Source: Parcubacteria group bacterium GW2011_GWC2_48_17
GTDB lineage: Bacteria > Patescibacteriota > Minisyncoccia > Phycocordibacterales > UBA10002
Assembly (NCBI GenBank): GCA_001003605.1
Contig: LCPL01000006.1
Location: forward strand, 1 to 58,852
DNA: 58,852 nucleotides
Reading direction: 5' to 3'
Made by a program: the position numbers and the translations under genes. Below the pieces are notes generated by a model. The model was not told the DNA's origin. It saw nothing but the letters and a program-made list of their open reading frames with translations, and did no database searches. Shown here piece by piece: positions 9,252 through 34,495 of this stretch (position 1 is its first letter; each line of letters starts with the position of its first letter).

Positions 9252-9721
9252 GCGTTTAGCGATTAGCGTCTAGCGGTTAGTAGAAAAAGAGAAGAAATAG
9301 ATGCCTAATCATTATAACTAAACGTTAGCCGCTAACCACTTTTGTTATATGTATGCCAAATCATACAAAGAACTCATTGTCTGGCAAAAATCCATTCAAT
9401 TGGTGAAAGCTGTCTATGCCGTTTCTGAAGGATTTCCTAAAGCGGAAATGTATGGGTTAACTAGCCAGATGCGAAGAGCGGCCGTTTCCATTCCATCAAA
9501 CATCGCGGAGGGATATAAGCGCAAAAGCAGACTTGAATTTCTTCAATTTCTTTCTATTGCCGAAGCTTCTGCCGCAGAACTAGAAACTCAAGTAATAATT
9601 GCGAAAGATTTGTACTCGGAAATAGACTATAGACCAACCGAGCAGTTACTAGAAGAAGTCCAGAAGATATTGGTGATTTTTATCCGAAAACTAAACGCTA
9701 AACGCTAAACGCTGTACGCTT
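9250..9721 (+). mobile_element. Repeat-bracketed cassette 1 (CGTTTAG / CTAAACG arms)
   Basis: aagcgtttagcgattagcgtctagcggttagt pairs with actaaacgctaaacgctaaacgctgtacgctt; stop at 9251, next ATG at 9725. Confidence 0.75.
9349..9708 (+). CDS. Four helix bundle protein (23S rRNA IVP / Avd-like, TIGR02436-type)
   Basis: SYKELIVWQKS...FPKAEMYGLTSQMRRAAVSIPSNIAEG...ELETQ. Confidence 0.92.
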   Translation: MYAKSYKELIVWQKSIQLVKAVYAVSEGFPKAEMYGLTSQMRRAAVSIPSNIAEGYKRKSRLEFLQFLSIAEASAAELETQVIIAKDLYSEIDYRPTEQLLEEVQKILVIFIRKLNAKR

Positions 9722-9724
9722 CCC

Positions 9725-10138
9725 ATGCGATTCCAGGTTCCACAATTCATAAACATCGAGGATAAGATTTTCGGCCCACTCACTATACGGCAGTTCGTAT
9801 ATACGGTGGGAGGCGCCGGCATGGTCTATGTAGTCTACAATTTCCTTCCTTTCTACCTTGCCATCTTTATCATCTTGCCGGTCGCGCTTCTCACTCTGGC
9901 GCTGGCTTTCTTCAAACCGAACGGCAAGCCGTTTGTTTTCATGTTACAGTCGGCCATCACTTACGCGTTTTCTAACAGGCTATATATTTGGCGGCGAATG
10001 CCCAAGCAGATGACGCCTAGCGACGCGGTCAAGGAATTTTCCAAGGCGGAAAGCGTTGTGCCTTCTCTTTCGGAGAGCAAGCTAAAGGATTTAACATGGG
10101 CGCTTGATATCAATCAAAACGTCAAGACACGAAAATAA
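9725..10138 (+). CDS. PrgI family protein
   Basis: MRFQVPQFINIEDKIFGPLTIRQF followed by two TMs. Confidence 0.88.
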   Translation: MRFQVPQFINIEDKIFGPLTIRQFVYTVGGAGMVYVVYNFLPFYLAIFIILPVALLTLALAFFKPNGKPFVFMLQSAITYAFSNRLYIWRRMPKQMTPSDAVKEFSKAESVVPSLSESKLKDLTWALDINQNVKTRK

Positions 10139-10140
10139 AT

Positions 10141-10652
10141 ATACGAAAATACGAATTAAAACCTACGAATTGCTACGAATAAAGCGATGACAAAAAATAA
10201 CAGGACGAGTCTTAAAGTCATTCATCCAGAACTTTCATATACTATTACTGGTATCTGTTTCGCGGTACATAAGGAGCTCGGCCAATACGCGAGAGAAAAA
10301 CAGTACTGCGACCTGCTTGAGGATAAACTTAAGGAGGCAGATATGCCTTTTCAGAGAGAACTGCGTATTGGGGAGAGTGGGAATATCCTTGATTTCTTGA
10401 TTGATAACAAGATTGCTTTTGAGGCAAAAGCGAAAAAAATCCTGTTGCCGGAGGATTATCGACAGATTCAAAATTATCTTCAGATTGCTAACGTACAACT
10501 TGGTCTGTTAGTAAACTTCCGTGCCGAGCATATACTGCCGAAAAGAATTGTGCGCATTGATAGCGAATCGAACAGAAAATCACAAGTTGAGGTATAATCT
10601 TAATGCCTTATTCGTAGCAATTCGTATATTCGCATAATTCGTATTTTCGTAT
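10141..10652 (+). mobile_element. Repeat-bracketed cassette 2 (TACGAAT / ATTCGTA arms)
   Basis: atacgaaaatacgaatta (10141-10158) is the exact reverse complement of taattcgtattttcgtat (10635-10652); tacgaattgctacgaataa pairs with ttattcgtagcaattcgta. Confidence 0.8.
10187..10597 (+). CDS. GxxExxY family protein (PD-(D/E)XK-like)
   Basis: ELSYTITGICFAVHKELGQYAREKQY...DFLIDNKIAFEAK...QIQNYL...LGLLVNF. Confidence 0.88.
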   Translation: MTKNNRTSLKVIHPELSYTITGICFAVHKELGQYAREKQYCDLLEDKLKEADMPFQRELRIGESGNILDFLIDNKIAFEAKAKKILLPEDYRQIQNYLQIANVQLGLLVNFRAEHILPKRIVRIDSESNRKSQVEV

Positions 10653-11301
10653 GCCTGTAGCAGCTAAAGCTTCACAAGACTTCGTAAAGATAAAGGAAAT
10701 CCGTGATGGAATCGTAATCCTCAAGGATGGCGGGCTTCGCGCGATACTTATGACCTCGTCTATTAACTTTGCTTTGAAATCGGAAGAAAATCAGCAAGCG
10801 ATTATTTCTCAATTCCAAAATTTTCTGAATTCCCTCACTTTTTCCGTGGAGATAGTCGTGCAATCCAGGCGTTTTGACATCAAGCCGTATATAACGCTTC
10901 TTGAGGAAAGGGAGCAAAAACAAAAAAACGAGCTTCTACGATTGCAGACGCGCGAGTATATCGGCTTCGTCAAGAAATTTACCGAGAGTACGAATGTCAT
11001 GAATAAAACATTTTTTCTTGTTGTTCCATATTCGCCCGCGATTGTGGAGGTGCGCGCTGTCGGGGAAGGTATTGTTATGAAGGTCAAAGAAGGGTTCGGC
11101 AAAGCGAAACACACGGAAACGGAAAAAACGCATGGGTTTGAAGAGAGCCGCACTCAACTGGAACAGCGCGTGTCTATCGTTGAACAGGGCCTTATAAGGA
11201 CCGGGATACGAGTCGCGCAACTTGGCACTGAAGAGGTGGTGGATGTGTTTTATCAGTTGTTCAATCCGGGTGTGACGGAGAAAACGGTTCAGGAGGTCTA
11301 A
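10651..11301 (+). CDS. Conjugal-transfer TraC/VirB4 N-terminal-like protein
   Basis: IKEIRDGIVILKDG...SINFALKSEENQ...FLNSL pattern between prgI and virB4. Confidence 0.75.
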   Translation: MPVAAKASQDFVKIKEIRDGIVILKDGGLRAILMTSSINFALKSEENQQAIISQFQNFLNSLTFSVEIVVQSRRFDIKPYITLLEEREQKQKNELLRLQTREYIGFVKKFTESTNVMNKTFFLVVPYSPAIVEVRAVGEGIVMKVKEGFGKAKHTETEKTHGFEESRTQLEQRVSIVEQGLIRTGIRVAQLGTEEVVDVFYQLFNPGVTEKTVQEV

Positions 11302-11789
11302 CAGATACCAATCTGCAAATGAATACCAATCTACTAATACCTGCAAATAAGAAGCAAGAAACTGAACTCTTATATCCAGAGCTTTCATTTGATGTCGTCG
11401 GCCTCTGTTACACGGTACACAATGAACTTGACCGATTCGCCAAAGAAAAACAATATGGGGATTGTCTGGAAGAAAGATTGAAGGAAAAAGGCATGTCTTA
11501 TATTCGAGAGCTTAGAATTGGAAATACAAACAATATCGCTGACTTCTTAGTAGACAACAAAATCATTCTGGAACTTAAGTCGAAAAGATTTCTTTTGCGG
11601 GAAGACTACCTTCAAACACAGCGCTACCTTCAGGCAACTAGCATGAAATTAGGTATTCTAGTCAACTTCTCTGGGAAATACGCGCGTACCCACAGGATAG
11701 TGAGAATTGAATACTCCAGTAGAAAGCCCGACTAGAGGATTAGTAGGTATTTGTAGATTGGAATAGATTAGTATTATTGGTATCTGTTA
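11299..11789 (+). mobile_element. Repeat-bracketed cassette 3 (TACCAATC/TACTAAT arms)
   Basis: taacagataccaat (11299-11312, starts at the TAA stop) is the exact reverse complement of attggtatctgtta (11776-11789, ends on the A of ATG). Confidence 0.8.
11319..11735 (+). CDS. GxxExxY family protein
   Basis: LLYPELSF...VHNELDRFAKEKQY...ADFLVDNKIILELK...QTQRYL...LGILVNF. Confidence 0.88.
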   Translation: MNTNLLIPANKKQETELLYPELSFDVVGLCYTVHNELDRFAKEKQYGDCLEERLKEKGMSYIRELRIGNTNNIADFLVDNKIILELKSKRFLLREDYLQTQRYLQATSMKLGILVNFSGKYARTHRIVRIEYSSRKPD

Positions 11790-14700
11790 TGAGTTTTCTA
11801 GACCTATTCAAAAAAAAGCGGGGGGGGAAGGACATCACGGAGTTTTTGCCGGAGGAGATATACCAATCCGGCACGCTTGAACTCCAAGATGTGATAGCGC
11901 CATCCGCGCTCAAGGTACTGCCGAACTCCCTCAATGTGAGCGGCAAGCTCACAAGAACTTTTTTTGTGATTTCATATCCGCGGTTTCTCTCCGAGGGCTG
12001 GTTCGCCCCAATTATCAACCTGGACAAAGTCTTTGACATCAGTATTTTTGTGCATCCGGTCGACACCGGGAAGATTCTCCGTCAATTTGAGAAAAAAGTG
12101 GCGGAGGTGCAGAGTCAGATAGCTGACCGGGAGAAAAAAGGCATGGTGCGCGACCCGGTTCTTGAAACGGCGCATCAGGACCTCGAGAAACTTAGAGATG
12201 ATTTGATTCAGGCGCAGGAAAAGCTTTTTGACGTGGGGATTTATATCACAATCTACGCGTCGACGGAAGATGAGATGGACAAGACAGAAAGCGAGGTGAA
12301 ATCGATTTTGGAAAGTAAACTCGTTATTGTTAAACCAGCACTCTTCCAGCAGGAACAAGGGTTTAGGAGCACGACACCGCTCGGAAACGATGAACTTTTG
12401 GCGCACACAAAGCTCAATTCCTCGCCTCTCTCGAGCGTGTTCCCGTTTCTGTCATTCGACCTTACTTCAAACAAAGGAATCCTGTATGGGGTAAACAGGC
12501 ATAACGCCTCGCTCGTTTTATTTGATAGGTTTAGTCTTGAGAACTACAACTCAATTACGCTCGCTAAGTCAGGTTCGGGCAAATCCCTTTTGGGACATGA
12601 GCCTGTGCTGGTACGAAAAAGCGGGAGTGTTTCGCTTCGACCGATTGGCGACATCGTCGAAGAGACAATTCAGGAGAGGGGTGCTATGCATATCGACCAT
12701 GAATTGGAGGGCGTCATTGACCCTGGACTCGAAGTCTGGAGCTTTAACAAAGCAATGCGGGGGGAGTGGAGCAGAGTGACAGTTGCGGCAAGAAAGGACG
12801 CCCCGAAAGAATTGTACCGATTCAAAACTCGAAGCGGGCGTGTTGTGGAAACTACCGGCGACCATAACATGCTCCTCCTGCGTAATGGTGAAATCGTCGC
12901 GGCAAAAAGTGCAAACGTGTCTTTGGGAGAATATGTACCTATGCCACGAGAGGTGAAACAAGATGCCGCCCCCATGCTCACGCTCAATCTCTTTGAGCTT
13001 ATGGCGGATTCTGGCGTCTATGTTTCCGGAGCCGGAGAACTTATCGCTAAACATCGGCATATACTGGAAACGAAGGAACTTGACGCACGCTTTGACAAAT
13101 ATCTCTACAAATACGCGGCGGGACGGCGTATACCCATTTCTTATTTTCTGAAGATACTTGCCCGACTCGTTATCAAAACGACGGACGCGAGAGTGTCGAA
13201 ATGCCTCATCACGTCGGCAAGCGGAACTGAAAGATTGCTGGCGTTCTATATCGTAGAGTCTGCACTCGCAAAGACTCTTGGTTATTTGGCCTCAGAGGGA
13301 ACGATAGGACAAAAAGTCGCGAGCATAAGCAACACTGATCCCGTTGTAATACAAGATATCTGCAATGCGCTCTTATCTTTAAAAGTACAGTATTTCAAAA
13401 CGCTGAAAAGCGTAGTCATAAGTGATGTTGTATTCGTGAAATTTCTCGCGGTTATCGACATGAGGGAAAAATCTGCCACCAAACGAATTCCAGCCATTAT
13501 TTTTGAGAGTAGCAAAGACGCACAGGCATCATTTCTCGCCGCGTATTTCGAAGGAGATGGTGGCGTTGACGGACCTGTGGTTACGACCGTTTCAAAATCC
13601 AAGATGCTTATTTCCGATATAAGTTATCTGCTGTACTTTTTTGGTATTAGAAGCAGAGTAGCAGTGCGCCAAAAAATGATTCCCGGAAAATCGAAGGCCG
13701 ATTATCATTTGCTCACTATATCGGGGCAGGCTAATCTGGAACGATTTAAAAGCAGGATCGGCTTTGTATCGAAAAGAAAAAACAAGCTTTTATCGGGGCT
13801 CAAGCGTGCGGAAAATACGAATGTTGACGTTATTCCTGGATTGGCCACCTTATTCCGGGAAGTTGACGCGCTTCTTGGCAAGGCTATGCGTGGGCGGCGA
13901 AACTGGAGTCCTTTAAAGCGTGGTGTATTTAACCCGTCACCTCGGGAGTTGCGGCGAGTGGTCTTTGAAATCCGCGAGGTACTACGGGAGATTGAATCCA
14001 AACGATGCTTGTTTGAAACGCTCGCGAGACTACCGCGCGTAGAGGACATAGTCAGGACGGCAGAGCAGAGTAAGGCGGTCAATTCAGCGCTTTGGAAGGA
14101 ACTCGGTTCAAGTTGGGCGACGATGAAAAACGGAATGATTCCGGGAATAGTCAATGCGCGTCGCGCTCTTCAATGCATGGGTGTTCTCTTGCCAGAAACA
14201 GCAGAGGTCAGGTCAACGATTAGCGCGGGGTTTGCATTTTTAGGCGAGCCGATGAAGCATTATAATCCTTCTCTTCGCTCGGCGCTCTATGTCAGTCAGG
14301 AGGCTGATACTTCTTATGAAATGTTGGCGCAAGCCGCAGGCTTCATTGCCGCGCGTTATCGTTCGCTTTGCGGAAACATCCCTAGAGTACAAGAAATACT
14401 CGCGCGACTTGAACGGCTTGCAGAGGCTGACCTTGCCTGGGACGAAATCGTGGTGATTGAACCGTTCCAAAACGAGCGCGAGCGCTATGTCTATGATTTG
14501 ACGGTTGACAATGAAGTGTTTCTTGCGGGATATGGCGGCATGTTCGTGCATAATTCATATATGTCAAAGCTTGAGATTCTGCGGTCACTCATGTTTGGAA
14601 CGGATGTGCTTGTCATTGACCCTGAAAGGGAATACGAATACCTAGCGGAAGCGGCGGGAGGAAAATATTTCAATATCTCTCTCAATTCACCCCACCATAT

Positions 14701-15580
14701 CAATCCATTTGAGCTCGCGGCTCCGCGAGAAGACGAGTCAGCGGATGATGTTTTGCGGTCAAATATCGTCAATCTTGTCGGACTTTTTAGGATACTTCTT
14801 GGCGGCCTAACGCCGGAAGAAGACGGAATTGTTGACCTTGCTATAACGGAAACATACGCTCTCAAAGACATAACTCCCGAATCTGACTTCTCAAAAATAG
14901 ATTCTCCGCTGCTCTCTGATTTTGAACTTGTGCTAGCGGGGATAGAAGGCGGGGAGTCTCTCGTACAGCGCCTCTCCAAATACACGCGCGGCACATGGGC
15001 GGGGTTCATCAATCAACCGTCAAATATTGATATAAACTCGAACTTCATTGTCTTTTCGCTTCGAGATATGGAAGATGAGCTGAAGCCGGCGGCAATGTAT
15101 ATAATCATGCACTTCATATGGAACGCCATTAGAAAGGAACTCAAAAAGCGCATAATGCTCATTGACGAGGCCTGGTGGATGATGAAGTCCGAGGACACGG
15201 CTTCTTTCCTCCTAGGACTCGCGAAGCGGGGGCGCAAATATTTCTTGGGGCTGTCAACCATAACGCAAGATGTCGACGATTTTTTAAAGTCGCCATACGG
15301 ACTCCCTATTCTGACCAACTCCTCCATGCAGGTGCTCCTCAAGCAGTCTCAAACCGTCATTGACAAGCTTCAGCAAATTTTTGACCTTACCGACGAGGAG
15401 AAGTATCTGCTTCTGGAATCGGATGTCGGCGAGGGACTCTTTTTCGTCGGGATAAAGCATGTCGCCATCAAGGTTATCGCTTCGTATACCGAAGACCAGA
15501 TTATCACCTCCGACCCGTCGCAGTTGCTTTCTATCAAAGCGGCGAAAGAGGAGCTGAAGGCGGCCGAAGGCACTAGCTAG
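11789..15580 (+). CDS. VirB4/TraC-like ATPase, intein-containing
   Basis: Walker A AKSGSGK|S split by intein; VIDPEREY; Walker B MLIDEAW; RGRKY...ITQ. Confidence 0.9.
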   Translation: MSFLDLFKKKRGGKDITEFLPEEIYQSGTLELQDVIAPSALKVLPNSLNVSGKLTRTFFVISYPRFLSEGWFAPIINLDKVFDISIFVHPVDTGKILRQFEKKVAEVQSQIADREKKGMVRDPVLETAHQDLEKLRDDLIQAQEKLFDVGIYITIYASTEDEMDKTESEVKSILESKLVIVKPALFQQEQGFRSTTPLGNDELLAHTKLNSSPLSSVFPFLSFDLTSNKGILYGVNRHNASLVLFDRFSLENYNSITLAKSGSGKSLLGHEPVLVRKSGSVSLRPIGDIVEETIQERGAMHIDHELEGVIDPGLEVWSFNKAMRGEWSRVTVAARKDAPKELYRFKTRSGRVVETTGDHNMLLLRNGEIVAAKSANVSLGEYVPMPREVKQDAAPMLTLNLFELMADSGVYVSGAGELIAKHRHILETKELDARFDKYLYKYAAGRRIPISYFLKILARLVIKTTDARVSKCLITSASGTERLLAFYIVESALAKTLGYLASEGTIGQKVASISNTDPVVIQDICNALLSLKVQYFKTLKSVVISDVVFVKFLAVIDMREKSATKRIPAIIFESSKDAQASFLAAYFEGDGGVDGPVVTTVSKSKMLISDISYLLYFFGIRSRVAVRQKMIPGKSKADYHLLTISGQANLERFKSRIGFVSKRKNKLLSGLKRAENTNVDVIPGLATLFREVDALLGKAMRGRRNWSPLKRGVFNPSPRELRRVVFEIREVLREIESKRCLFETLARLPRVEDIVRTAEQSKAVNSALWKELGSSWATMKNGMIPGIVNARRALQCMGVLLPETAEVRSTISAGFAFLGEPMKHYNPSLRSALYVSQEADTSYEMLAQAAGFIAARYRSLCGNIPRVQEILARLERLAEADLAWDEIVVIEPFQNERERYVYDLTVDNEVFLAGYGGMFVHNSYMSKLEILRSLMFGTDVLVIDPEREYEYLAEAAGGKYFNISLNSPHHINPFELAAPREDESADDVLRSNIVNLVGLFRILLGGLTPEEDGIVDLAITETYALKDITPESDFSKIDSPLLSDFELVLAGIEGGESLVQRLSKYTRGTWAGFINQPSNIDINSNFIVFSLRDMEDELKPAAMYIIMHFIWNAIRKELKKRIMLIDEAWWMMKSEDTASFLLGLAKRGRKYFLGLSTITQDVDDFLKSPYGLPILTNSSMQVLLKQSQTVIDKLQQIFDLTDEEKYLLLESDVGEGLFFVGIKHVAIKVIASYTEDQIITSDPSQLLSIKAAKEELKAAEGTS
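12584..14554 (+). mobile_element. Intein with LAGLIDADG homing endonuclease (657 aa)
   Basis: Starts SLLGHEPV, block B TTGDHN, LGYLASEG and FLAAYFEGDG motifs, VYDLTV...FVHN|S end. Confidence 0.92.
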
Positions 15581-15672
15581 CGTTTAGCGTGTAGCGTGTA
15601 GCGGTTAGTTCAGATGAGGATTTCTTGGGCTTTCTTTTCATACTAAACGCTATACGCTAATCGCTAAACGCT
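15578..15672. repeat. Empty heptamer hairpin (CGTTTAG/CTAAACG family)
   Basis: tagcgtttagcgtgtagcgtgtagcggttagt ... actaaacgctatacgctaatcgctaaacgct, starting at the virB4 stop. Confidence 0.88.
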
Positions 15673-15684
15673 TCTTCAACTATC

Positions 15685-16501: not shown

Positions 16502-17506
16502 GTGCATTATAAACTTGCTGCGTTTGCGTTTCTCGCACTCATCTCGCTCGGAGCGCAGAGTCTTTTCGCGCAAACCGGAACAGCAGGAACCGAACTTTCC
16601 ATGATGGTATTTCCAGAGCATCCTCGGCCTGGAGACGCGATAGTCGTGTCCGTGGAGAGTTACAATATAGACCTCAACCGCGCGGATATGCGTTGGTTTA
16701 TAAACAACAAGCTCGTGAAGGCCGGGGTCGGTGAAAAAAGTCTTGAAACTGTCGCCTCGCGTGCGGGAGAGTTTATGGAAATCCGCGTCGCGGCGCTTGG
16801 AGAAAATGGCAGTGTTTATTCAGCGAGCATCTCATTCCGCCCGGCGGAGGTCAACCTCTTGTGGCAAACGGAAAGCTACACTCCGCCGTTCTACAAAGGA
16901 AAGGCGCTCATGCCGTATCAGGGCACGGTGCTTGTCGCGGCCGTTCCGTCCTTTACGAGAGGAGGGAGAGTTATGTCTTCAGAATCTCTTATCTACACAT
17001 GGAAAGAAGGGGATGATGTGATAGGCGATTCTTCAGGAAAAGGAAAGAGCTTGTTCGTCTTCCGCGGCAGTGTGCCGATTAGAGCCAAGACTATTTCGGT
17101 CCTCGTAGAGAGTCCTGACCGCACTATGGCCGCGGAGGCTTCAGTGGATATTGTGCCTGTCGCTCCACGCCTGCTTTTCTACGAGGAACATCCGCTCTAT
17201 GGCCTCCTTCTCTCGAAGGCGCTTATAGGAAACTTTCTCCTGAAAGGAGACGAGACTCGCATTAGCGCACTTCCGTTTTATTTTGAAACCGACACAAAGT
17301 CGAATAAAGACATCCTGTATGACTGGCAGTTGAATTATCAGGAGCTCCCGAATGAAAGAGGCCCGGCCTTGACGCTTCGCCGTATCGTAGAGACCGCTGG
17401 AAAGTCAAATCTTTTTCTTGAAGCGAGGAGCGCTGATGAGAACAAATTATTCCAGACCGCGGAGGAAAGACTTACAATTGAGTTTCCAGAGAAGAGTAGC
17501 TTCTAG
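16502..17506 (+). CDS. Secreted beta-rich (Ig/PKD-like) hypothetical protein
   Basis: Signal peptide ending LFAQ; SYTPPFYKGKAL; repeated Y-x-W strands. Confidence 0.7.
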   Translation: MHYKLAAFAFLALISLGAQSLFAQTGTAGTELSMMVFPEHPRPGDAIVVSVESYNIDLNRADMRWFINNKLVKAGVGEKSLETVASRAGEFMEIRVAALGENGSVYSASISFRPAEVNLLWQTESYTPPFYKGKALMPYQGTVLVAAVPSFTRGGRVMSSESLIYTWKEGDDVIGDSSGKGKSLFVFRGSVPIRAKTISVLVESPDRTMAAEASVDIVPVAPRLLFYEEHPLYGLLLSKALIGNFLLKGDETRISALPFYFETDTKSNKDILYDWQLNYQELPNERGPALTLRRIVETAGKSNLFLEARSADENKLFQTAEERLTIEFPEKSSF

Positions 17507-17715
17507 CTTTTAGGTTCTAGCTTCTAGCAATAAATCCAGCTTTTAGCTTCTAGGTTTTAGCTTCTAGTAAGAAGAAAATAACTATGAGCGCGCCAATCGC
17601 CAAATCATACAAAGACTTCCATGTTCTCGTACGGAGAGGTGGAAGATCTCTTCACCGAAGTTATGAAGATGCTCCATGTCCTTATCTCCAAACTAGAAGC
17701 TAAAAGCTAGAACCT
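17498..17715 (+). pseudogene. Internally deleted four-helix-bundle cassette (TAGCTTC / CTAGAAG family)
   Basis: MSAPIAKSYKDF (17584) fused out of frame to SYGEVEDLFTEVMKMLHVLISKLEAKS* (ends 17710); arms abut the upstream stop (17506) and ATG (17716). Confidence 0.85.
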
Positions 17716-19381: not shown

Positions 19382-19573
19382 ATGAAAACAACGCGAGGGT
19401 ATATCGCAGTGGACCCGAACATTTGCCACGGCCAGCCGCACTTTTCGGGGACGCGGGTTTTGGTGCATACCGTACTGGAACTCCTTGAAGCCGGAATCTC
19501 GACTGAAGAAATTACCGGACCGGAGTATTACCCGGGACTTACCGAAAAACACATCTCGGCAGCGTTCAGGTAA
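19382..19573 (+). pseudogene. DUF433 antitoxin, apparently 3'-truncated and orphan
   Basis: IAVDPNICHGQPHFSGTRVLVHTVLELL motif; ends inside the 3' end of convergent mazF. Confidence 0.7.
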
Positions 19574-19937
19574 ACATTGCGAGACCCAAACTGATTTCGA
19601 TAGCTTGATTTACTTTTGTCATCGTCCTAGGTAACACCGAGCCAAGCTTGGTAAGTAAGCGTACTTTGTCTACGGTACGGATATGGCCAAGTAGCACCAC
19701 CGAGCGTTTCTCCAACCCTCCTTCAGGCGGCTCAATTAGCACTTCGGTTGGATACACAGGCTCATCAAATTGGGAGGTCAGAGCGGCAACAATAGTTACC
19801 GGACTGTATCGGTTTCCGATATCGTTTTGAAGAATAAGCGCCGGGCGCGTCTTCTTGACTTCCGAGCCGATGGTAGGATCAAAATTCACAATATACACTT
19901 CTCCGCGTTTCGGAGTTGTTTTTGCGTTCCTTTTCAT
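19566..19937 (-). CDS. mazF: PemK/MazF family toxin
   Basis: KRGEVYIVNFDPTIGSEVKKTRPALILQND. Confidence 0.92.
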   Translation of the reverse strand: MKRNAKTTPKRGEVYIVNFDPTIGSEVKKTRPALILQNDIGNRYSPVTIVAALTSQFDEPVYPTEVLIEPPEGGLEKRSVVLLGHIRTVDKVRLLTKLGSVLPRTMTKVNQAIEISLGLAMFT

Positions 19938-19948
19938 ATCCGGTAGCC

Positions 19949-20191
19949 CTATTCGAGATTGAACCATTCCTCTGCGAGAAAGAGGTCCCGCTTGGTGTGT
20001 TTCTCGGCCCCTTTGCGAAGCAATTTTCTAAGATTGCCGTGGCTTGTTTTTTGTACATAGAAGCGCACCGCACGGTCAACGAAACCGCTCCGGTTCCCCC
20101 GAGGAGAGAGGCGCTCTAGTAAACGCACTGTCTCTTGGGGTAGCGTAATATCGATTCTCTTATATGTTTCTCTTACAAGGTGACCACTCAT
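19949..20191 (-). CDS. RHH antitoxin partner of MazF
   Basis: KRIDITLP...NRSGFVDRAVR...LAEEWF; directly upstream of toxin. Confidence 0.8.
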   Translation of the reverse strand: MSGHLVRETYKRIDITLPQETVRLLERLSPRGNRSGFVDRAVRFYVQKTSHGNLRKLLRKGAEKHTKRDLFLAEEWFNLE

Positions 20192-20492: not shown

Positions 20493-20864
20493 ATGACGCT
20501 GGATACCAACATCATTATTCTCTACTTGAATCGTGAGACGGCCATCGTTCGCGCGCTTGATGAAATACGGAAGCAAGGCGTATCGTTTATTCTCCCCGCC
20601 GCCGTTGAGGCGGAGTTTTTGTCCTTCTCGTCGTGGACGCCTGACCAACGTAGGACAATGGAAGAATTTCTGGAAGAAAATTTTGTCTTTGTTTCGCTTG
20701 ACCGACCGCTCGCACGTCTCGCCGCTCGTATTCGTGTTAACACAAGGATAAAATTTGCTGATGCATCAATCGCCGCAACGGCGCTTTTTACTAACACACC
20801 TCTTGTTACTCGAAATGTCCGTGATTTCAAAAAAGTTCCAGGATTACAGGTGATGACTCTATAA
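20493..20864 (+). CDS. vapC: VapC/PIN domain toxin
   Basis: LDTNIII...E...DASIAATA...LVTRN.RDF. Confidence 0.9.
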   Translation: MTLDTNIIILYLNRETAIVRALDEIRKQGVSFILPAAVEAEFLSFSSWTPDQRRTMEEFLEENFVFVSLDRPLARLAARIRVNTRIKFADASIAATALFTNTPLVTRNVRDFKKVPGLQVMTL

Positions 20865-21105: not shown

Positions 21106-22308
21106 ATGTCCCGCAAAACCAAAACCATCATAGCTGTCGCCGTAGTTCTCTTGCTTATAGCGCTTGGTGTTTTCTTGTATTTTCTGTGGAATAAGAAGCC
21201 GGTTTCGCCCGACTTGGGTGGCACATTCCCTCCACCGACAGATGAAATCGCTCCGGAGGAAAAACCTCCGGTAACGCTCCCAGAAGAAGTCGCGGGGCCA
21301 TTTGAGCCGATACTGCGCCAGCTTTCCAAAGTGCCGATAGCAGGAGCCGTGCTCGGAGTAAAAAGCGGCGAGGCCGTCGTGCGCTATCAGGAACGCGCCA
21401 CGGGAAATATATATGAAATCGGGGCGGCGGGAGAGGGAGAGAAACGGCTTACGAATACTACGATTCCGAAAGTTTATGAAGCGCTTTGGAGCAAAACAGG
21501 CACCGAGCTTGTTTCCCGCTACGTTCGCGAGAATAGCGAGATAATCGAGTCCTTTTCGGCACGAGTCATTCCTGAATCGTCAGGAAAAGAAGGCGAGCTT
21601 CAGGGTGTATTTTTGCCTCGAGATATTTCAAGCGCCGCGATAGCGCCGGATGGAAAGAAGGTTTTCTATTTGCAAGGGGAGAACGGCGGAGCATCCGGCA
21701 TACAGAGCGACCTTTCCGGCAACGGAAAAACGAAGATTTGGGCATCTCCCGTCCGTGAATGGCTGGTGTCATGGCCGGCGGCAAACAAAATCGCGATTTT
21801 ATCAAAGCCCTCCGGTTTTGCTTCAGGAATGCTCATTTCGCTTGACCCTCTAAGCGGAGCGAGAACGCTTGTTCTACGGAATATCCCCGGACTCACGGCT
21901 CTTATGAACCCAGCTAAATCGCTGACGCTGTATTCGGCGAGCAGTGAATCGAACATTTCGCTCCACATGCTAGACACAGCAACTGGAAGAAATAGCACCG
22001 TTCGCACTACAACATTTCCGGAAAAATGCGTATGGAGCAAAAATGGGGAAAGCTTTTACTGCGGCGTTCCAAAGATAATTCCGCCGGGAACATACCCTGA
22101 CGTGTGGTACCAAGGAGTTATCGCGTTTGAAGACGAAGTATGGGGCATCACTCCTTCGTCTGGAGTAACGGATCGCGTGCTTGACATAAGCGGGAAGCGC
22201 GGAATCCCGATTGACCTTATAAACCCGGAGGTAAGTCCTGATGAAAAATTCCTCATCTTTACGGACAAAGAAAGCGGCACGCTGTGGAGTTTGCAGATGA
22301 AGCCGTAA
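21106..22308 (+). CDS. Membrane-anchored TolB-like beta-propeller protein
   Basis: N-terminal TM; APDGKKVFY, SPDEKFLIF propeller-like repeats. Confidence 0.7.
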   Translation: MSRKTKTIIAVAVVLLLIALGVFLYFLWNKKPVSPDLGGTFPPPTDEIAPEEKPPVTLPEEVAGPFEPILRQLSKVPIAGAVLGVKSGEAVVRYQERATGNIYEIGAAGEGEKRLTNTTIPKVYEALWSKTGTELVSRYVRENSEIIESFSARVIPESSGKEGELQGVFLPRDISSAAIAPDGKKVFYLQGENGGASGIQSDLSGNGKTKIWASPVREWLVSWPAANKIAILSKPSGFASGMLISLDPLSGARTLVLRNIPGLTALMNPAKSLTLYSASSESNISLHMLDTATGRNSTVRTTTFPEKCVWSKNGESFYCGVPKIIPPGTYPDVWYQGVIAFEDEVWGITPSSGVTDRVLDISGKRGIPIDLINPEVSPDEKFLIFTDKESGTLWSLQMKP

Positions 22309-22309
22309 G

Positions 22310-22769
22310 GCGTATAACGCAAAACGTGTAGCGTTAGCGGAAGAAAAGACTTGGCGTATAACGGGTAACGCACAATGGAAAACAAAACCTACCACGAGGA
22401 GTTAAAACAATTGATGAATGAGTACGTACAGAAAGTATATATATGCACTAAGAAGTTCCCGATGGAAGAGATATTCGGTGTAACCTCACAACTGCGGCGA
22501 GCCGCATTATCGGTTGTCTTAAACTACATTGAAGGATACGCGAGACAGCGAAAAGAAGTGTTGCGAAATTTTATCGAAATATCATACGGCTCTCTCAAGG
22601 AAAGCGGTTATTTAATTTGGTTCTCAAAAACTCAACAATACTTAAGCGAATCAGACTGCAAAGACCTTACCGCGCTCGGAGACAGAATTGGAAAAATGCT
22701 TTGGGGGATTCTGATGGGACTTAAGAAGAAATAGTTTTTCGTTACACGCTTCACGATACACGTTACACG
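22310..22769 (+). mobile_element. Repeat-bracketed cassette 4 (GTATAAC/TGTAACG vs CGTTACA arms)
   Basis: gcgtataacgcaaaacgtgtagcg ... cgttacacgcttcacgatacacgttacacgc, between two convergent stop codons. Confidence 0.72.
22375..22734 (+). CDS. Four helix bundle protein
   Basis: FPMEEIFGVTSQLRRAALSVVLNYIEG; about 80% identical to 34039..34398. Confidence 0.9.
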   Translation: MENKTYHEELKQLMNEYVQKVYICTKKFPMEEIFGVTSQLRRAALSVVLNYIEGYARQRKEVLRNFIEISYGSLKESGYLIWFSKTQQYLSESDCKDLTALGDRIGKMLWGILMGLKKK

Positions 22770-23278
22770 CTGTCCCCGATGTACTTAATCACCACTCTTC
22801 GTCGTTCTCCTTCGCCTATTGATTCGGTTTTGAGGTCGGTGGATTCCTGAAGGTAAGAGTGTATTACCATGCGGTCATAGCTCGACATTGGTTCAAGTTC
22901 AACACTTGTTTTGAAAGAGCGCGCCCTATCGCCCATGACTTTGGCCAAATTCTTGATGTTCTCGGCAGCCGTTTCCTGATAGCCGTTCACGTCAATGAAA
23001 AACGACATTTCTTTTTCGCCCGCGCTTTGAGAAACCGTTTCAGCAGAACTTCCGGCCGTTGCTTTCTTCGCGGCGTTTTTGGATGACACAATCTTCTTAA
23101 CTATGTGATTCAGCGCGAAGAGATTTGCTCCTTTTGTCCCTATGAGCATGTGCGAATCCGGCGTCTTCACGGAAAAACATTCCCGCCCGTCGGAGTGTTT
23201 GGTTTCTATGCTATCAACGCCCACATTCATGTGTTTTAGCAGGCCGATTATAAGCTCTTTTATGTCGTTTGAATCCAT
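22763..23278 (-). CDS. jag: Jag/EloR KH-R3H RNA-binding protein
   Basis: LIGTKGANLFAL (KH) and LEPMSSYDRMVIH (R3H); ATG at 23278, longer ORF is repeat read-through. Confidence 0.88.
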   Translation of the reverse strand: MDSNDIKELIIGLLKHMNVGVDSIETKHSDGRECFSVKTPDSHMLIGTKGANLFALNHIVKKIVSSKNAAKKATAGSSAETVSQSAGEKEMSFFIDVNGYQETAAENIKNLAKVMGDRARSFKTSVELEPMSSYDRMVIHSYLQESTDLKTESIGEGERRRVVIKYIGDSV

Positions 23279-25019: not shown

Positions 25020-25093
25020 ACGTGTAGCGTGTAGCGTGTAGCGAAGAATCTCCTAATTCTGAAAACTCTTGCGTTACACGTTACACGATTCGC
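25020..25093. repeat. Empty heptamer hairpin directly upstream of rpmH
   Basis: cgtgtagcgtgtagcgtgtagcg ... cgttacacgttacacgattcgcg. Confidence 0.8.
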
Positions 25094-25186
25094 GATTGTC
25101 CCCAATCTGTCCCCACATTATTAACATAAGGTCGTGTTTTTTACAAGTTTTGTATTTTCGTTATCAGTATATACTAGTATCGACTC

Positions 25187-25286
25187 AATTAGCTTGCTAG
25201 CTTTTTAGCTAGTTAGCTTTCTAGGAAGGAGACGGTACGCTAATAAGCTAGTAACCTGTAGTCGCAGACTAGCTAAACAGCTAATT
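25187..25286. repeat. Octamer hairpin directly upstream of dnaA
   Basis: tagcttgc-tagctttt-tagctagt-tagctttc ... ctaataagctagtaacc...ctagctaaacagctaatt. Confidence 0.8.
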
Positions 25287-25295: not shown

Positions 25296-26645
25296 ATGAA
25301 TGATATTAAAAAACTGTGGGAGGGCGCCCTCTTGGAAATAGAACTCTCGGTTTCCAAGGCTAATTTTACGACATGGTTTAAGGATACCTCTATAGCCCGT
25401 ATTGAGGAGGGGATAGTTTATCTTTCGGTGCCGAATACTTTCGTAAAGGATTGGCTTCTAAACAAATATCATAAGTTTATACTGCGTTCTCTCCGCAATA
25501 TTTCTGAACAAATCAGAGCGCTCGAATATACAGTTACCAAAGAAGATGTGCGTAAAAGGGAGCCGTTAGCCGTCCAAGTGGATTCTTCTTCGCTTACTTC
25601 CGAACTTCCAATTCAAGATTATTACGTGGATAAGGAAACCAACCTTAACCCGCGCTATACTTTCGACTCTTTTATTGTCGGGCCGTTTAACGAACTGGCG
25701 CACGCAGCCGCTTTGGCAATAATCAAAAGCCCTGGGATTACATATAACCCTCTTTTTGTGTATGGGTCAACTGGACACGGCAAAACGCACCTTATTCAGG
25801 CGATAGGAAATAAAATTAGAACTCTATTCCCAAACTACCGTATTTTTTACATGACGTCTGAAAAATTCTCGCAGGAATTCTTGAGTGCCATGCAAAATAA
25901 CCGCATCACTCAATTTAAGGAGAAATACCGCCAGTACGACTGTGTCATCATGGACGACATACAATTTTTCTCGGAAAAGGAGAGAAGCCAGGAGGAACTA
26001 TTCCATTTGTTCAATGAACTGTACGCGCACAATAAGCAAATTATCTTTTCTTCGGACCGGCACCCAAATTACATCCAAGGACTCGAGGAGCGCCTCAAAT
26101 CTAGATTCGCCGCGGGTATGACGGTGGATATTCCTCCTCCAGACAGAGAGTCGCGCGTATCAATTTTGAAGGCTAAGGCTCGCCTTATGAAGCTTAAGCT
26201 TGCTGACGACGCGGCCGAATACATATCAGCGGCTCTTGAGGGAAACATACGCGAACTTGAAGGAATGCTAAATTCAATTATGATGAAGACGGAGGTGAAG
26301 GGGGGGGAACTTGGCCTTTTAGAGATTAAGGAGATTCTAAAAAATACCAGCAAGCCCAAAAAAGCCTTATCCGCAAAGGAAATTACGAAAGTCATAGCGG
26401 ACTTTTACAGCATTGACGAAAACCACATCTACGAAAAGACTCGCAGGAAGGAGGTGGTAAAGCCAAGACAGCTTGTGATGTATATTCTTCGAGAAGACTG
26501 CCGCTTTTCATTTCCGCTTATCGGGCAGAAACTCGGGGGGAGGGACCACACGACTGTCATACACTCGTGCGAAAAAATCAGAAACGAGATTTTGGAAGAC
26601 CCGAATCTTCTTCAGGAAATAAACCAGATTCGCGCGTTGCTGTAA
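25296..26645 (+). CDS. dnaA: Chromosomal replication initiator DnaA
   Basis: YNPLFVYGSTGHGKTHL, DDIQF, GGRDHTTVIH. Confidence 0.98.
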   Translation: MNDIKKLWEGALLEIELSVSKANFTTWFKDTSIARIEEGIVYLSVPNTFVKDWLLNKYHKFILRSLRNISEQIRALEYTVTKEDVRKREPLAVQVDSSSLTSELPIQDYYVDKETNLNPRYTFDSFIVGPFNELAHAAALAIIKSPGITYNPLFVYGSTGHGKTHLIQAIGNKIRTLFPNYRIFYMTSEKFSQEFLSAMQNNRITQFKEKYRQYDCVIMDDIQFFSEKERSQEELFHLFNELYAHNKQIIFSSDRHPNYIQGLEERLKSRFAAGMTVDIPPPDRESRVSILKAKARLMKLKLADDAAEYISAALEGNIRELEGMLNSIMMKTEVKGGELGLLEIKEILKNTSKPKKALSAKEITKVIADFYSIDENHIYEKTRRKEVVKPRQLVMYILREDCRFSFPLIGQKLGGRDHTTVIHSCEKIRNEILEDPNLLQEINQIRALL

Positions 26646-30817: not shown

Positions 30818-30843
30818 GGGAAGATAGTAGCATAACTAAACTG

Positions 30844-30927
30844 GAATTATGAAGTATGAATCTTGAATTATGGAAAGGCCAATTTTGGTTTCCCAACCCT
30901 AATTCATAATTCCCAATTCATTATTCA
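30844..30927. repeat. Empty hairpin, TATGAAT family
   Basis: gaattatgaagtatgaatcttgaattatgg ... aattcataattcccaattcattattca; near-copy at 40434-40523. Confidence 0.85.
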
Positions 30928-30951
30928 CCCGAGGTATGCTACCGTATACCC

Positions 30952-32175: not shown

Positions 32176-33174
32176 CGAAATGCACCAGACCACGATTAGG
32201 TGATACACTACAAGCGGCTCCCTAACGGGAGCCGCTTGTATGTTACTCACTGGAATAACAATCTATCACAACCTCAACACTATCGTAACACAGTTCTTCA
32301 GCGCACTCCAATTCAAGGAACGCGAACACTCCAAAGGTCGGAAACCAATCCTCACTAACTCCGAAGCCGTCACCTGCGCCGTCTTCAAGCAGAGACAGAA
32401 CATTGCCACAATAAAATCCCTCTATGACATCTTGGAACCCCCGCTCTCGTATCAGAAGTTCGTGGATGCCGTGAACCGCGCGGAGAAATATCTAGCCGCC
32501 CTGATTGGGGCAATCATGCGGATACTTGGAAAGGAGGCGCATGTCATCAAGTTCACCGACTCGACCGAGCTTCCCGTCTGTCTCCCGAAAAACGCGAGGT
32601 ATCATCGCACTATGCGAGGGTGTGCTGAATGGTCGAAAAGCTCCAAAGGCTGGTTCTATGGCCTCAAGCTTCACCTTTCTGCTGATGCGGAGGGGCGGGT
32701 GCTGGCGCTTCGCCTCACCCCAGGTAACGCTGACGACCGCGCCATATTCCGCAGGATGAATGAGAAACTGCGTGGCCTCTTTGTCGCCGATGCGGGGTAT
32801 GTCTCAAAGGAGCTTGCGCAGGACTTCTGCATCGAAGGTGAGCGCCTCCTCATTACCGCCGTTCGTGCGAACATGAAAAAGCTCGCCACCTTTGTGCAGG
32901 TTGCGCTCCTCAATCTGCGTATGCGGGTGGAGATACACTTCCGCATGCTCAAAGTCTGTTATGGCCTCGTCACGTCGTTTCCTCGTTCCGTTGACGGTTA
33001 CCTCACGCATTACCTTGCCGCGATTGCGGCGCATCTGCTCGCGTAATCAATTATCAAAAAGGTTTCTTCGTTGTTTCGTTCTTGAATCGTTAGTGTTGAG
33101 TGTTGTTTTCACAAAAGCCACAGACATCTGTGATTGTTCGTTTTACCTTTCAAATTGCATTTCGTTATTCAAAG
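32166..33174 (+). mobile_element. IS982-family insertion sequence, 1009 bp
   Basis: 19-bp TIRs ct(g/t)tgaataacgaaatgca (1 mismatch); 7-bp TSD TAAAACA at 32159-32165 and 33175-33181. Confidence 0.9.
32240..33046 (+). CDS. IS982-type DDE transposase
   Basis: DSTELPVC, GWFYGLKLHL, ADAGY, RMRVEIHF. Confidence 0.88.
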   Translation: MLLTGITIYHNLNTIVTQFFSALQFKEREHSKGRKPILTNSEAVTCAVFKQRQNIATIKSLYDILEPPLSYQKFVDAVNRAEKYLAALIGAIMRILGKEAHVIKFTDSTELPVCLPKNARYHRTMRGCAEWSKSSKGWFYGLKLHLSADAEGRVLALRLTPGNADDRAIFRRMNEKLRGLFVADAGYVSKELAQDFCIEGERLLITAVRANMKKLATFVQVALLNLRMRVEIHFRMLKVCYGLVTSFPRSVDGYLTHYLAAIAAHLLA

Positions 33175-33213
33175 TAAAACAGAATCCTTAATCTTTCATC
33201 CTTAATCTTTAAC

Positions 33214-33239
33214 AAAAACCGCCCCAAGGGGCGGTTTTT
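33214..33239. terminator. Bidirectional intrinsic terminator
   Basis: aaaaaccgcccc-aa-ggggcggttttt. Confidence 0.8.
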
Positions 33240-33241
33240 GT

Positions 33242-33358
33242 TTAGAGTGGGTCTATGTCATCGAATGTGTCCTCAAGCACATCTGGGTCAAGCTCTTTTT
33301 CTTCTTCGCCCTCCACGCCATCGGCAGCCGGCCCAGGAATTACTACGTCTTCATCCAT
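33242..33358 (-). CDS. 38-aa acidic microprotein (not in ORF track)
   Basis: MDEDVVIPGPAADGVEGEEEKELDPDVLEDTFDDIDPL*; ends at the terminator. Confidence 0.55.
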   Translation of the reverse strand: MDEDVVIPGPAADGVEGEEEKELDPDVLEDTFDDIDPL

Positions 33359-33454
33359 ATTTTTACTTAAAAATGCTAATACATAACGCTAGCGTCTCCG
33401 AATGTACCAATACTGTAAAACTTTTGCAAGCAACCAAAGCTGTGGATAGCCAAA

Positions 33455-33535
33455 TTAACCCACAACCGACTACCGGCAACCTACAACGGAGAAAAGACTT
33501 AATCGGTCTCGTGGTTGGTGGTAGGTTGTCGGTGA
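33455..33535. repeat. Heptamer hairpin (CAACCTA family) overlapping the ruvC 3' end
   Basis: taccggcaacctac vs gtaggttgtcggtg; RuvC tail HHRQPTTNH derives from it. Confidence 0.7.
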
Positions 33536-34005
33536 TGAACTGACGCAAGACACGTCAGCCCCACCGCTATCGCGTCATATTCGTCATCAAGACGCTTTGA
33601 TAGGGGAAGCGCGACGAGCTTTTTCACCATCTCGGCAACCTGTCGCTTGTCGCTTCGCCCGTAGCCAGTGACCGCAATCTTTATCTGGAGCGGCGTGTAT
33701 TCATAAACAGGTAGTTTTGCTCTGGCAATTTCAACCAAAATCGCGCCTCGAGCCTCGGCCACGGACATAACAGTTTTCTGGTTTGTTGTGAAGAACAATG
33801 TTTCAATCGCGGCCGCTTCCGGGTTGAATTCATCTATTACTTTTCGCAGTTCGCTGGCGATTTTCAAAAGACGCCGCGCGTGCGAAAGCCCCTTCATCGT
33901 TTGGACGCAGGCGGAGTAGAGAAGCATTTCCTTTTGTTTTGGCAGCTTCTCAAGAACGGCGATGCCGAGTCGTTCGTAGCCAGGATCTATCGCGAGGATG
34001 CGCAT
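33499..34005 (-). CDS. ruvC: Holliday junction resolvase
   Basis: ILAIDPG, IETLFF, VTGYGRSDK, DDEYDAIA. Confidence 0.96.
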   Translation of the reverse strand: MRILAIDPGYERLGIAVLEKLPKQKEMLLYSACVQTMKGLSHARRLLKIASELRKVIDEFNPEAAAIETLFFTTNQKTVMSVAEARGAILVEIARAKLPVYEYTPLQIKIAVTGYGRSDKRQVAEMVKKLVALPLSKRLDDEYDAIAVGLTCLASVHHRQPTTNHETD

Positions 34006-34495
34006 AACGTGTAACGTGAAGCGTATAACGGCAAAAGATTACTTCTGTTTTAACCCCGCTAAAATTCCCCAGAGCATTTTGCCGATTCGGTCACCAAGTA
34101 CGGAAAGTTCCTTATGCTCCGCTTCATTCAAATACTGCTGAGTACGCGAGAAGTAGATTAAGTAGTTACTTTCTTTAAGAGAGCCATATGAAATCTCAAT
34201 AAAGTTGCGAAGCACCTCCTTTCGCTGTCGGGCGTATCCTTCTATATAATTGAGAACCACCGACAAAGCCGCTCGTCGTAACTGTGAAGTTACACCGAAT
34301 ATCTCTTCTCTCGGGAATTTTTTGGTGCGTGTGTATACTTTCTGGACATATTCATCCAGTAATTCCTTGAGCTGTCCATGAAAATCCTTTTCTCCCATAT
34401 TTGTTTTGGGTTATCTTTTTATTCCGCTACATGTTATACGGTTTGCGTTACACCCCGTATTCTCCTGTTACGCGCTGCACGTTTTGCGTTATACC
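34003..34495 (-). mobile_element. Repeat-bracketed cassette 5 (same family as cassette 4)
   Basis: Minus strand tataacgcaaaacgtgcagcgcgtaac just after the yebC stop pairs with gttatacgcttcacgttacacgttATG (ruvC start). Confidence 0.78.
34039..34398 (-). CDS. Four helix bundle protein
   Basis: FPREEIFGVTSQLRRAALSVVLNYIEG. Confidence 0.9.
   Translation of the reverse strand: MGEKDFHGQLKELLDEYVQKVYTRTKKFPREEIFGVTSQLRRAALSVVLNYIEGYARQRKEVLRNFIEISYGSLKESNYLIYFSRTQQYLNEAEHKELSVLGDRIGKMLWGILAGLKQK

Follow-up and report, generated by a model that had tools for sequence, protein, structure and literature searches.

Small genes flanked by inverted arrays of a 7- or 8-base word recur along contig LCPL01000006.1 of Parcubacteria group bacterium GW2011_GWC2_48_17, a very small bacterium from groundwater, and the word that flanks a gene follows the lineage of the encoded protein. 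The window, 58,852 nucleotides long, makes up the whole of this contig (C6), one of 29 in a genome of 1.03 Mb that is of the candidate phyla radiation (CPR) type and is coded G000 below. It contains five inserted cassettes (A to E) and two decayed ones, built as a small 'cargo' gene with an array of the word on its 5′ side and an array of the complement on its 3′ side (the two arms). The gene and its arms stay together as a unit, both in descent and in movement between genomes. Strong purifying selection acts on the cargo proteins, and the arm sequence itself, beyond the complementarity of the two arms, is conserved long after synonymous sites have saturated. We lean, with little more than even confidence, towards reading these elements as cassettes of the intervening-sequence (IVS) type, with gene-less derivatives, in which the cargo would recognize its own word array in the service of persistence or copying, in the manner of REP-associated tyrosine transposases (RAYTs) and their cognate palindromic repeats (REPINs).

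The repeat word follows the cargo lineage

G000 has 12 cargo genes, ten of the TIGR02436/PF05635 (four-helix-bundle) family and two of the TIGR04256/PF13366 (GxxExxY) family; the interval singled out in the initial annotation (9349–34398) holds three of the former and both of the latter. All 12 have a word array upstream and an array of the complementary word downstream, and the words vary from gene to gene (CTAAACG, CTAGAAG, CTACCTT, GTCAATT, TGTAACG-type, CCAATAA, TACGAAT and others).

Relatives of the proteins encoded at 22375 and 9349 were collected from public genomes. Of the 139 loci in a first set, 122 gave an open reading frame (ORF) of 90–170 amino acids with flanking sequence, the others having an odd ORF length (14) or a missing flank (3); an inverted-arm alignment score of 24 or more was reached by 100. 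The 22375 relatives, which come from many CPR groups, have CATGAAA/CATGTAA/CGTGAAG-type arms, and CPR relatives of 9349 have CTAAACG or CCCTAAA-type arms. In Desulfuromonadales relatives the arms are of CCTCACT type. Together with the ten G000 cassettes, these gave 110 cassettes from many phyla (5,995 pairs), in which protein identity and arm 7-mer similarity were correlated (Spearman 0.47), with none of 999 Mantel permutations as high. Arm similarity was 0.03–0.05 for proteins less than 35% identical, 0.34 at 55–65%, 0.64 at 65–80% and 0.82 above 80%.

A second set was drawn from the genus, where 15 of 18 congeners carry one to seven four-helix copies, and from the order. From these, 67 cassettes were extracted (the same-order genomes G021 and G027 included), and filtering left 53; adding the ten of G000 gave a Spearman correlation of 0.28, which again none of 999 Mantel permutations reached. 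Sharing a host genome makes no difference to arm similarity, which at less than 30% protein identity is 0.068 for 98 same-genome pairs and 0.056 for 1,221 different-genome pairs; the word follows the cargo lineage.

The initial annotation had proposed that protein and repeat travel and co-evolve as a unit, and had suggested mapping the words on a protein tree. On a FastTree tree of 163 four-helix cassettes, the 35 word classes are far from randomly placed: they require 53 changes, where the minimum possible is 34 and 500 label shuffles required 119–132 (mean 126). Because such shuffles ignore relatedness among cassettes, the size of this effect, and not a P value, is the message. With the two Mantel results and the lack of a host-genome effect, the proposal is supported.

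GxxExxY proteins as a second cargo family

The unrelated GxxExxY family has matches in 35 of the 251 genomes of the order. An order-wide search gave 30 loci, 18 of which were analyzed together with one locus from a separate search for relatives; 15 of these 19 are stand-alone genes with flanks, one has too short a flank and three are long RecG fusions. Among the 12 loci left out, 11 look like further long fusions by open-frame length, and the twelfth is the window's own (L244). The combination of CGAAT upstream and ATTCG downstream is found in 8 of 17 stand-alone GxxExxY cassettes (15 relatives and the two of G000) versus 2 of 185 four-helix cassettes. This family is therefore associated with a word type of its own, whose period is about 8.

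Rather than forming a separate gene, the GxxExxY/PDDEXK_3 domain is often part of RecG in this order, inserted in frame between the DEAD and Helicase_C domains. Among the GxxExxY matches listed, 16 of 53 are in open frames of 521–907 amino acids; three long frames scanned with Pfam (L217, L218 and L224, from G247, G058 and G004) gave a RecG wedge or DEAD domain, PDDEXK_3 and Helicase_C.

Selection on cargo proteins and on arms

The paralogous cargo genes D (22375–22734, forward strand) and E (34039–34398, reverse strand) had been described as about 95/119 identical, with one 47-residue identical block, diverged third codon positions and common arm units, and this description holds. The proteins agree at 95 of 119 residues, with a longest identical block of 47 (positions 31–77). 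The genes agree at 251 of 357 nucleotides, distributed as 97, 106 and 48 of 119 over the three codon positions, and synonymous differences affect 27 of the 47 codons that encode the identical block. Both have GTATAACG/GTGTAACG/CAAAACG/TGTAGCG-type units upstream and their complements downstream; where the arms can be aligned, 44 of 47 upstream positions and 27 of 29 downstream ones are the same.

Purifying selection on such paralogs, also part of the initial annotation, is supported by the ratio of nonsynonymous to synonymous divergence (dN/dS): a maximum-likelihood estimate gives dN 0.13, dS 2.1 and dN/dS 0.06, far from 1. By the Nei–Gojobori method (NG86), dS is undefined for this pair because its synonymous sites are saturated. 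The same holds more widely: among 98 cassette pairs of at least 70% identity, 39 have a measurable NG86 dS, with a median dN/dS of 0.09 and 38 of the 39 below 0.3, the other 59 being saturated or undefined. A second same-genome paralogous pair (L154 and L161, contig C42 of G005) encodes proteins that are 92% identical, with NG86 dS 1.31, dN/dS 0.03 and almost identical CTAAAAAGCTAA-type arms.

Arm sequence outlasts synonymous sites. In 967 cassette pairs at 55–90% amino-acid identity, fourfold-site identity is 0.30, that is, saturated; in the same pairs, 347 upstream and 315 downstream flank alignments exceed the 95th percentile of a null built from the best local alignments of 130-nt flanks in 202 unrelated pairs, where 5% would be expected.

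The D/E lineage has a third member in congener G016, identical to both at 94 of 119 residues and with the same arm units. The genes that flank it have no detectable counterpart in G000, and related genomes therefore carry this lineage at different loci.

Word arrays away from the cassettes

Word repeats are more frequent in G000 than expected by chance. The genome has 305 arrays of period 7, versus 8, 38, 25 and 24 for periods 5, 6, 8 and 9 and 3 in a shuffled sequence, and they are mostly intergenic. Removal of N runs left 302 arrays, 10 within 250 nt of a cargo gene and 292 free. An inverted partner lies within 1.5 kb of 138 of the 302, at less than 100 nt for 82 of these.

The cargo-less arrays carry mostly the words of their own genome's cassettes. 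An arm word of the 12 resident cassettes is matched exactly by 202 of the 292 free arrays, compared with a mean of 85 and a maximum of 145 for 200 control sets of 12 foreign cassettes. Exact matching was used because matching with one mismatch was uninformative (291 of 292 arrays versus a control mean of 277). In a matrix of three genomes, every row has its highest match between arrays and the cassette arms of the same genome (0.62, 0.49 and 0.52, versus 0.05–0.31 for other genomes).

Among five related genomes, the density of period-7 arrays is 29 per 100 kb in G000 (10 four-helix genes), 33 in G009 (six) and 11 in G021 (eight). In two congeners without a TIGR02436 gene, G012 and G018, it is 4.0 and 3.9, no higher than their own period-6 and period-8 counts; these assemblies are 100% and 99% complete, and 326 and 337 kb, a third to half of each, were read.

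Arrays also occur in the likely origin region of G000, between rnpA and dnaA-dnaN. Just upstream of dnaA (25296–26645), positions 25021–25224 hold CGTGTAG ×3.3, CGTTACA ×2.3 and a 16-nt TAGCT-type repeat.

Cassettes and derivatives in the window

The features of the window are as follows (A to E as above; + forward strand, − reverse strand).

9252–9281, +: cassette A 5′ arm, AGCGTTT-type units (complement of CTAAACG), directly after the host TAA at 9249–9251
9349–9708, +: cargo A, four-helix-bundle protein (TIGR02436/PF05635), 119 amino acids; last six codons and stop (KLNAKR*) from the 3′ arm
9691–9720, +: cassette A 3′ arm, (CTAAACG)×3.3 at 9691–9713 and one degenerate unit, 4 nt before the PrgI-family ATG (9725)
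10129–10185, +: cassette B 5′ arm, TACGAAT/ACGAAAAT units, also TACGAAA, period about 8; overlaps the end and stop of the PrgI-family gene
10187–10597, +: cargo B, GxxExxY protein (TIGR04256; PF13366, PD-(D/E)XK fold family), 136 amino acids
10605–10652, +: cassette B 3′ arm, ATTCGTA-type units, running into the ATG of the next host gene (10651)
11299–11312, +: cassette C 5′ terminal inverted repeat, 14 nt, holding TACCAAT; its first three bases are the upstream host TAA stop
11319–11735, +: cargo C, second GxxExxY protein, 138 amino acids
11736–11789, +: cassette C 3′ arm region, ATTAGTA/ATTGGAA/ATTGGTA units, terminal repeat at 11776–11789; ends at the VirB4/TraG-like ATG
22309–22373, +: cassette D 5′ arm blocks, GTATAACG/CAAAACG/TGTAGCG at 22309–22340 and a second block at 22354–22373, directly after the host TAA at 22306–22308
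22375–22734, +: cargo D, four-helix protein, 119 residues, paralog of cargo E
22740–22772, +: cassette D 3′ arm, CGTTACA/CGCTTCA/CGATACA units; the stop of the convergent R3H-domain gene (22763–22765) lies inside
34003–34031, −: cassette E 3′ arm, abutting and including the ruvC ATG (34003–34005)
34039–34398, −: cargo E, paralog of cargo D, synonymous sites saturated
34424–34497, −: cassette E 5′ arm blocks, inner 34424–34456 and outer 34466–34497, reaching the YebC-family stop at 34498–34500
1517–1660, +: deletion derivative from the cassette A lineage, without a gene; about 80 nt remain from the 5′ end and about 45 nt from the 3′ end; CTAAACG-type units at 1633–1655
17497–17715, +: internally deleted, frameshifted CTAGAAG-lineage cassette; 5′ array at 17497–17567; C-terminal frame ends in the arm-encoded KLEAKS*
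15578–15672, +: cargo-less palindrome, TAGCGTG ×3.7 facing CTAAACG ×4.3, between the VirB4/TraG-like gene and the next ORF

The cassettes fill the intergenic space exactly, between the stop and start codons of protein-coding host genes. The 5′ arm starts right after, or contains, the upstream stop (9249–9251, 11299–11301, 22306–22308 and 34498–34500), and the 3′ arm ends at, or contains, the next start codon (9725, 10651, 11789 and that of ruvC).

The word period of 7 is not a multiple of 3, and one stop triplet in the word therefore closes all frames within 21 bases. Stops in all three sense frames occur in the 5′ arm of 61 of 168 cassettes (36%, versus about 9% of shuffled arms), and stops in all three antisense frames in the 3′ arm of 53 (32%, versus about 7%), these stops facing incoming translation. 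With a period of 7, and likewise of 8, one stop triplet is spread over every frame; at period 7 this would allow insertion at gene boundaries without giving rise to fusion proteins. The arms are also strand-asymmetric, with a purine-rich 5′ arm (A-T 1,655 versus T-A 1,072 and G-C 1,003 versus C-G 528 over the same cassettes).

The words first assigned to the individual genes were found again. The 10187 gene has TACGAAT/TACGAAA arms and the 11319 gene TACCAAT with ATTAGTA/ATTGGTA units, the words TACGAAT and TACCAAT being one base apart. The tails KLNAKR* (9349) and KLEAKS* (the remnant at 17584) are read from 3′ arm units, as had been noted.

Likewise, the remnant at 1590 shares CTAAACG with 9349, since 1517–1660 repeats both ends of cassette A with nearly the whole ORF missing; its 3′ match was read by eye, because MAFFT misplaced this part. 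The remnant at 17584 has the CTAGAAG-type arms ascribed to it; of its ORF, 11 N-terminal codons remain and, out of frame with them, 22 C-terminal ones. A full-length relative of this gene exists in the same genome (C1:43034).

Word arrays and palindromes are also read through in frame within ORF 7713–9251 (512 amino acids, without a Pfam match). They are of CTAGAAG type at 8080–8220 and 8580–8610, of CTAAACG type at 8670–8725 and of other types at 8912–9002, and word units that would be in-frame stops are altered, for example from TAG to CAG or CAA.

The junction between ruvC and YebC, occupied in G000 by cassette E, turns over among congeners. The gap is 1 nt in G007, G013 and G032 and about 20 nt in G008; five different gene-less word palindromes stand there in G009, G006, G015, G004 and G010, the one in G015 with GTAAC-type words like those of the G000 cassette; and unrelated inserts of 0.8 kb (G003 and G018) and 1.6 kb (G001, G002 and G014) occupy it elsewhere. 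The 1.6-kb inserts (L205–L207) contain an ORF of 483–490 amino acids. Those of G003 (L203) and G018 (L208) include a 199-residue ORF with an HD-like motif and a 118-residue ORF, DUF559-like by eye, beside a small membrane protein.

Proposed recognition of the arms and alternative explanations

Under the preferred reading, each cargo protein, whether a four-helix bundle or a PD-(D/E)XK-fold GxxExxY protein, would recognize its own word array, probably on DNA or on either strand rather than as a sense RNA hairpin alone. Such recognition would serve the persistence or copying of the cassette and its gene-less derivatives, as a RAYT serves its cognate REPINs. Binding of the arms by the putative reader is plausible, and three observations fit it indirectly: arms are conserved past synonymous saturation, lineage words differ within one genome, and G012 and G018 show no array excess. 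With nine or more different words present in a single genome, a host factor cannot be the explanation.

The alternative that survives best, although we judge it unlikely, combines linkage with selection for a hairpin. The cargo would never touch the arms, which would form an IVS-like stem, as an RNase III substrate or a DNA cruciform; a change in one unit would produce a mismatch, so that pairing freezes the word, and words would track the cargo by physical linkage only. The arms are indeed largely complementary, with 4,258 of 4,920 aligned pairs in the stems of 168 cassettes being Watson–Crick (86.5%) and 354 being mismatches other than G·U or A·C. In the minimum-free-energy fold of cassette A RNA they pair as the terminal stem (z −2.0, a value reached by 5 of 100 shuffles). 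G000 encodes RNase III (rnc, 253.5 bits), and the S23p-bearing IVSs of Coxiella are reported to be excised by this enzyme (PMC4990558). Yet a sense RNA hairpin would favor G·U pairs, and in these stems there is no excess of them over A·C pairs, which would be G·U in the antisense strand (144 versus 164, P = 0.28); a purely RNA-level reading was dropped as the main one because of this negative test. Cassette D RNA folds no better than shuffled sequence (z +0.48), and the folds of cassettes A and D are weak support at best for a stable RNA stem. Nor does selection for pairing alone explain why the resemblance between diverged copies exceeds the complementarity within a cassette: the D and E arms agree at the 44 of 47 and 27 of 29 positions given above, compared with about 18 of 22 positions pairing within cassette D (alignment read by eye). 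Moreover, pairing would allow compensated turnover of the word, yet words stay recognizable past fourfold-site saturation.

Several points weigh against recognition by the cargo. To our knowledge, no nucleic-acid-binding or catalytic activity has been documented for PF05635 proteins. Linkage and the decay of old insertions predict most of the same patterns: with arrays descending from decayed cassettes, one would likewise expect the signal on the tree, free arrays that match resident arms, and no excess in genomes that never had a cassette. The tree shuffles and the Mantel permutations alike take no account of relatedness among cassettes, and part of the coupling of cargo and arm is forced by coding, because 42 of 168 cassettes have a 3′ arm that begins before the ORF ends. 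At the threshold used, 164 of the 302 arrays of G000 lack an inverted partner at a distance of up to 1.5 kb. In 90 of the 302, the word is absent from every resident cassette but present in cassettes of congeners, and arrays can therefore outlast their cargo. The density comparison is one of five related genomes and no statistical sample, G012 and G018 also being smaller genomes, and G012 is not free of all cargo because it has one GxxExxY match. Finally, the PF05635 domain is described as functionally uncharacterized (PMC11270868, PMC4990558).

The reverse order of events, in which slippage arrays of the kind of cyanobacterial heptanucleotide microsatellites arise at gene boundaries and selfish genes land later in the palindromes, appears improbable. 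It would account for 292 arrays away from cargo genes versus 12 cargo genes, for the unpartnered arrays, and for the five congeners with gene-less palindromes at the ruvC/YebC junction where G000 has a cassette. It is at odds with words that track cargo lineage and not host genome across phyla, with the lack of a period-7 excess in the two congeners without four-helix cargo genes, with at least two gene-less window elements that are demonstrably deleted cassettes, and with the occurrence of one cassette lineage, arms included, at different loci in G000 and G016. It is very improbable that coding alone preserves the word, with the C-terminal tail of the cargo read from the 3′ arm and the 5′ arm only a mirror of that arm: the 3′ arm begins at least 6 nt inside the ORF in 25 of the 42 overlapping cassettes, and KLNAKR and KLEAxx tails recur in relatives with CTAAACG and CTAGAAG arms, but 126 of 168 cassettes have no overlap, among them the D/E lineage with some of the best-conserved arms, and the overlap extends over at most about three units of one arm.

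A broader form of arm recognition is possible, and we put it forward tentatively, as something that may well prove wrong: PF05635 proteins and small GxxExxY nucleases could in general be sequence-specific readers of 7–8-base word arrays, each maintaining and spreading its own repeats, and thus a second, transposase-less class of protein-plus-repeat replicators beside RAYT/REPIN. If so, this would explain both the ORF-bearing rRNA IVSs and the excess of heptanucleotide repeats in bacteria.

Comparison with known systems

The closest counterpart is the ORF-bearing IVS of 23S rRNA (helix 45 in Coxiella burnetii; Leptospira and others), which has the same protein family (S23p/PF05635) and the same layout, an element of about 450 nt with terminal inverted repeats around the ORF. 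Inverted repeats surround all 12 cargo genes of G000, but none of the window's five cassettes is in a 23S rRNA helix, all of them lying between protein-coding genes. In contrast to rRNA IVSs, the G000 elements supply stop or start codons to their hosts, and their arms are whole arrays of a lineage-specific word. Three tandem heptamers have been described upstream of the Coxiella S23p ORF; that ORF is reported to be decaying and probably untranslated (PMC4990558), whereas the ORFs here are under strong purifying selection. PF05635 domains have also been found in rRNA inserts of CPR (PMC11270868).

With RAYTs and REPINs (PMC3116915, PMC3337134, PMC8266576) the cassettes share a gene flanked by inverted copies of a repeat family that is dispersed in the same genome (the 202 of 292 free arrays above), different repeat families for different gene lineages, and repeat populations tied to the presence of the gene. 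They differ in having no IS200/IS605-type Y1 (HUH) transposase: Pfam and NCBIfam scans of the cargo give only PF05635/bAvd or PF13366, that is, a four-helix bundle without known catalytic activity or a small PD-(D/E)XK-fold protein. Unlike a REPIN, which is a single imperfect palindrome, the repeats are tandem 7–8-mers, and several cargo copies and lineages coexist in a genome (10 + 2 in G000).

Heptanucleotide tandem repeats are known in bacteria, as the short tandemly repeated repetitive (STRR) sequences of cyanobacteria and as long heptameric simple sequence repeats. G000 resembles these in its genome-wide, mostly intergenic excess of period 7 over neighboring periods. In G000, however, arrays form inverted pairs and are assignable to resident cassettes, and in G012 and G018 they are not in excess.

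Gene-less derivatives with inverted ends (1517–1660 and 15578–15672) recall miniature inverted-repeat transposable elements (MITEs) and Rickettsia palindromic elements, and the in-frame copies inside ORF 7713–9251 recall the latter. Unlike in those elements, the master copies lack a transposase and the arms are tandem word arrays. Diversity-generating retroelements are a more distant comparison through Avd, whose fold family is distantly related and gives weak matches (PF22296 bAvd, 28–38 bits versus a cut-off of 40; NF033474, 22.6–27.9 versus 80). No reverse transcriptase domain was found among the 32 ORFs scanned in bases 1–36000 of the window, and with Avd scores below the cut-off and no reverse transcriptase nearby, this assignment was rejected.

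Our literature searches, with subscription journals and supplements outside their coverage, found no paper stating the rule that links cargo and word. The rule makes three statements about the word: it is retained beyond what neutral decay would leave, it does not depend on the host genome, and free arrays of the same genome mirror it. A branch-specific word is the first concrete, testable candidate ligand for PF05635/TIGR02436 proteins. The rule also connects rRNA IVSs, bacterial heptanucleotide repeats and the dense palindromic intergenic fillers of CPR genomes, and for annotation it explains small genes wedged between essential genes of compact genomes, from which they borrow stop or start codons.

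Family assignment and genomic setting

The three four-helix proteins of the window score 123.8, 83.7 and 84.7 bits against TIGR02436 (cut-off 24) and 124.7, 85.1 and 87.6 against PF05635 (33.8). The two GxxExxY proteins (10187–10597 and 11319–11735), identical to each other at 63 of 127 positions, score 68.2 and 70.1 against TIGR04256 (35) and 71.8 and 72.2 against PF13366 (PDDEXK_3; 22). PF05635/TIGR02436 is a very large family with solved structures and no assigned function, known mainly as a passenger of rRNA IVSs and as a relative of Avd. One four-helix cargo protein (P0001) matches PF05635 at 2e-36, the XCC0516 structure 2GSC (five chains) at 5e-23 and also 2RLD, and by this homology the four-helix cargo is predicted to be a pentamer-forming, S23p/Avd-like bundle. 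The motif GxxRxxxSxxxNxxE has been described for the family, as have such genes wedged between cas genes (PMC3936711). In the translations, RxxxSxxxNxxE is read as RAAVSIPSNIAE in the 9349 protein and as RAALSVVLNYIE in the 22375 and 34039 proteins, and the leading G is absent from all three.

Cassette A lies between an ORF without a family match and a PrgI gene, and cassette B between PrgI and an ORF without a family match that it shares with cassette C, whose other neighbor is VirB4/TraG. Cassette D is flanked by an ORF without a family match and the R3H-domain gene, and cassette E by YebC and RuvC. The window also contains MazF/PemK-like toxin, PIN/VapC-like, DUF559 endonuclease-like and DDE transposase genes (19566–19967, 20493–20864; 95–544; 32240–33046). 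Three cassettes are packed into a single type IV secretion-like cluster with PrgI at 9725–10138, a VirB4/TraG-like ATPase gene at 11789–15580 and a weak TrbL-like match in 3927–7691; the ATPase gene carries an intein with a LAGLIDADG endonuclease domain.

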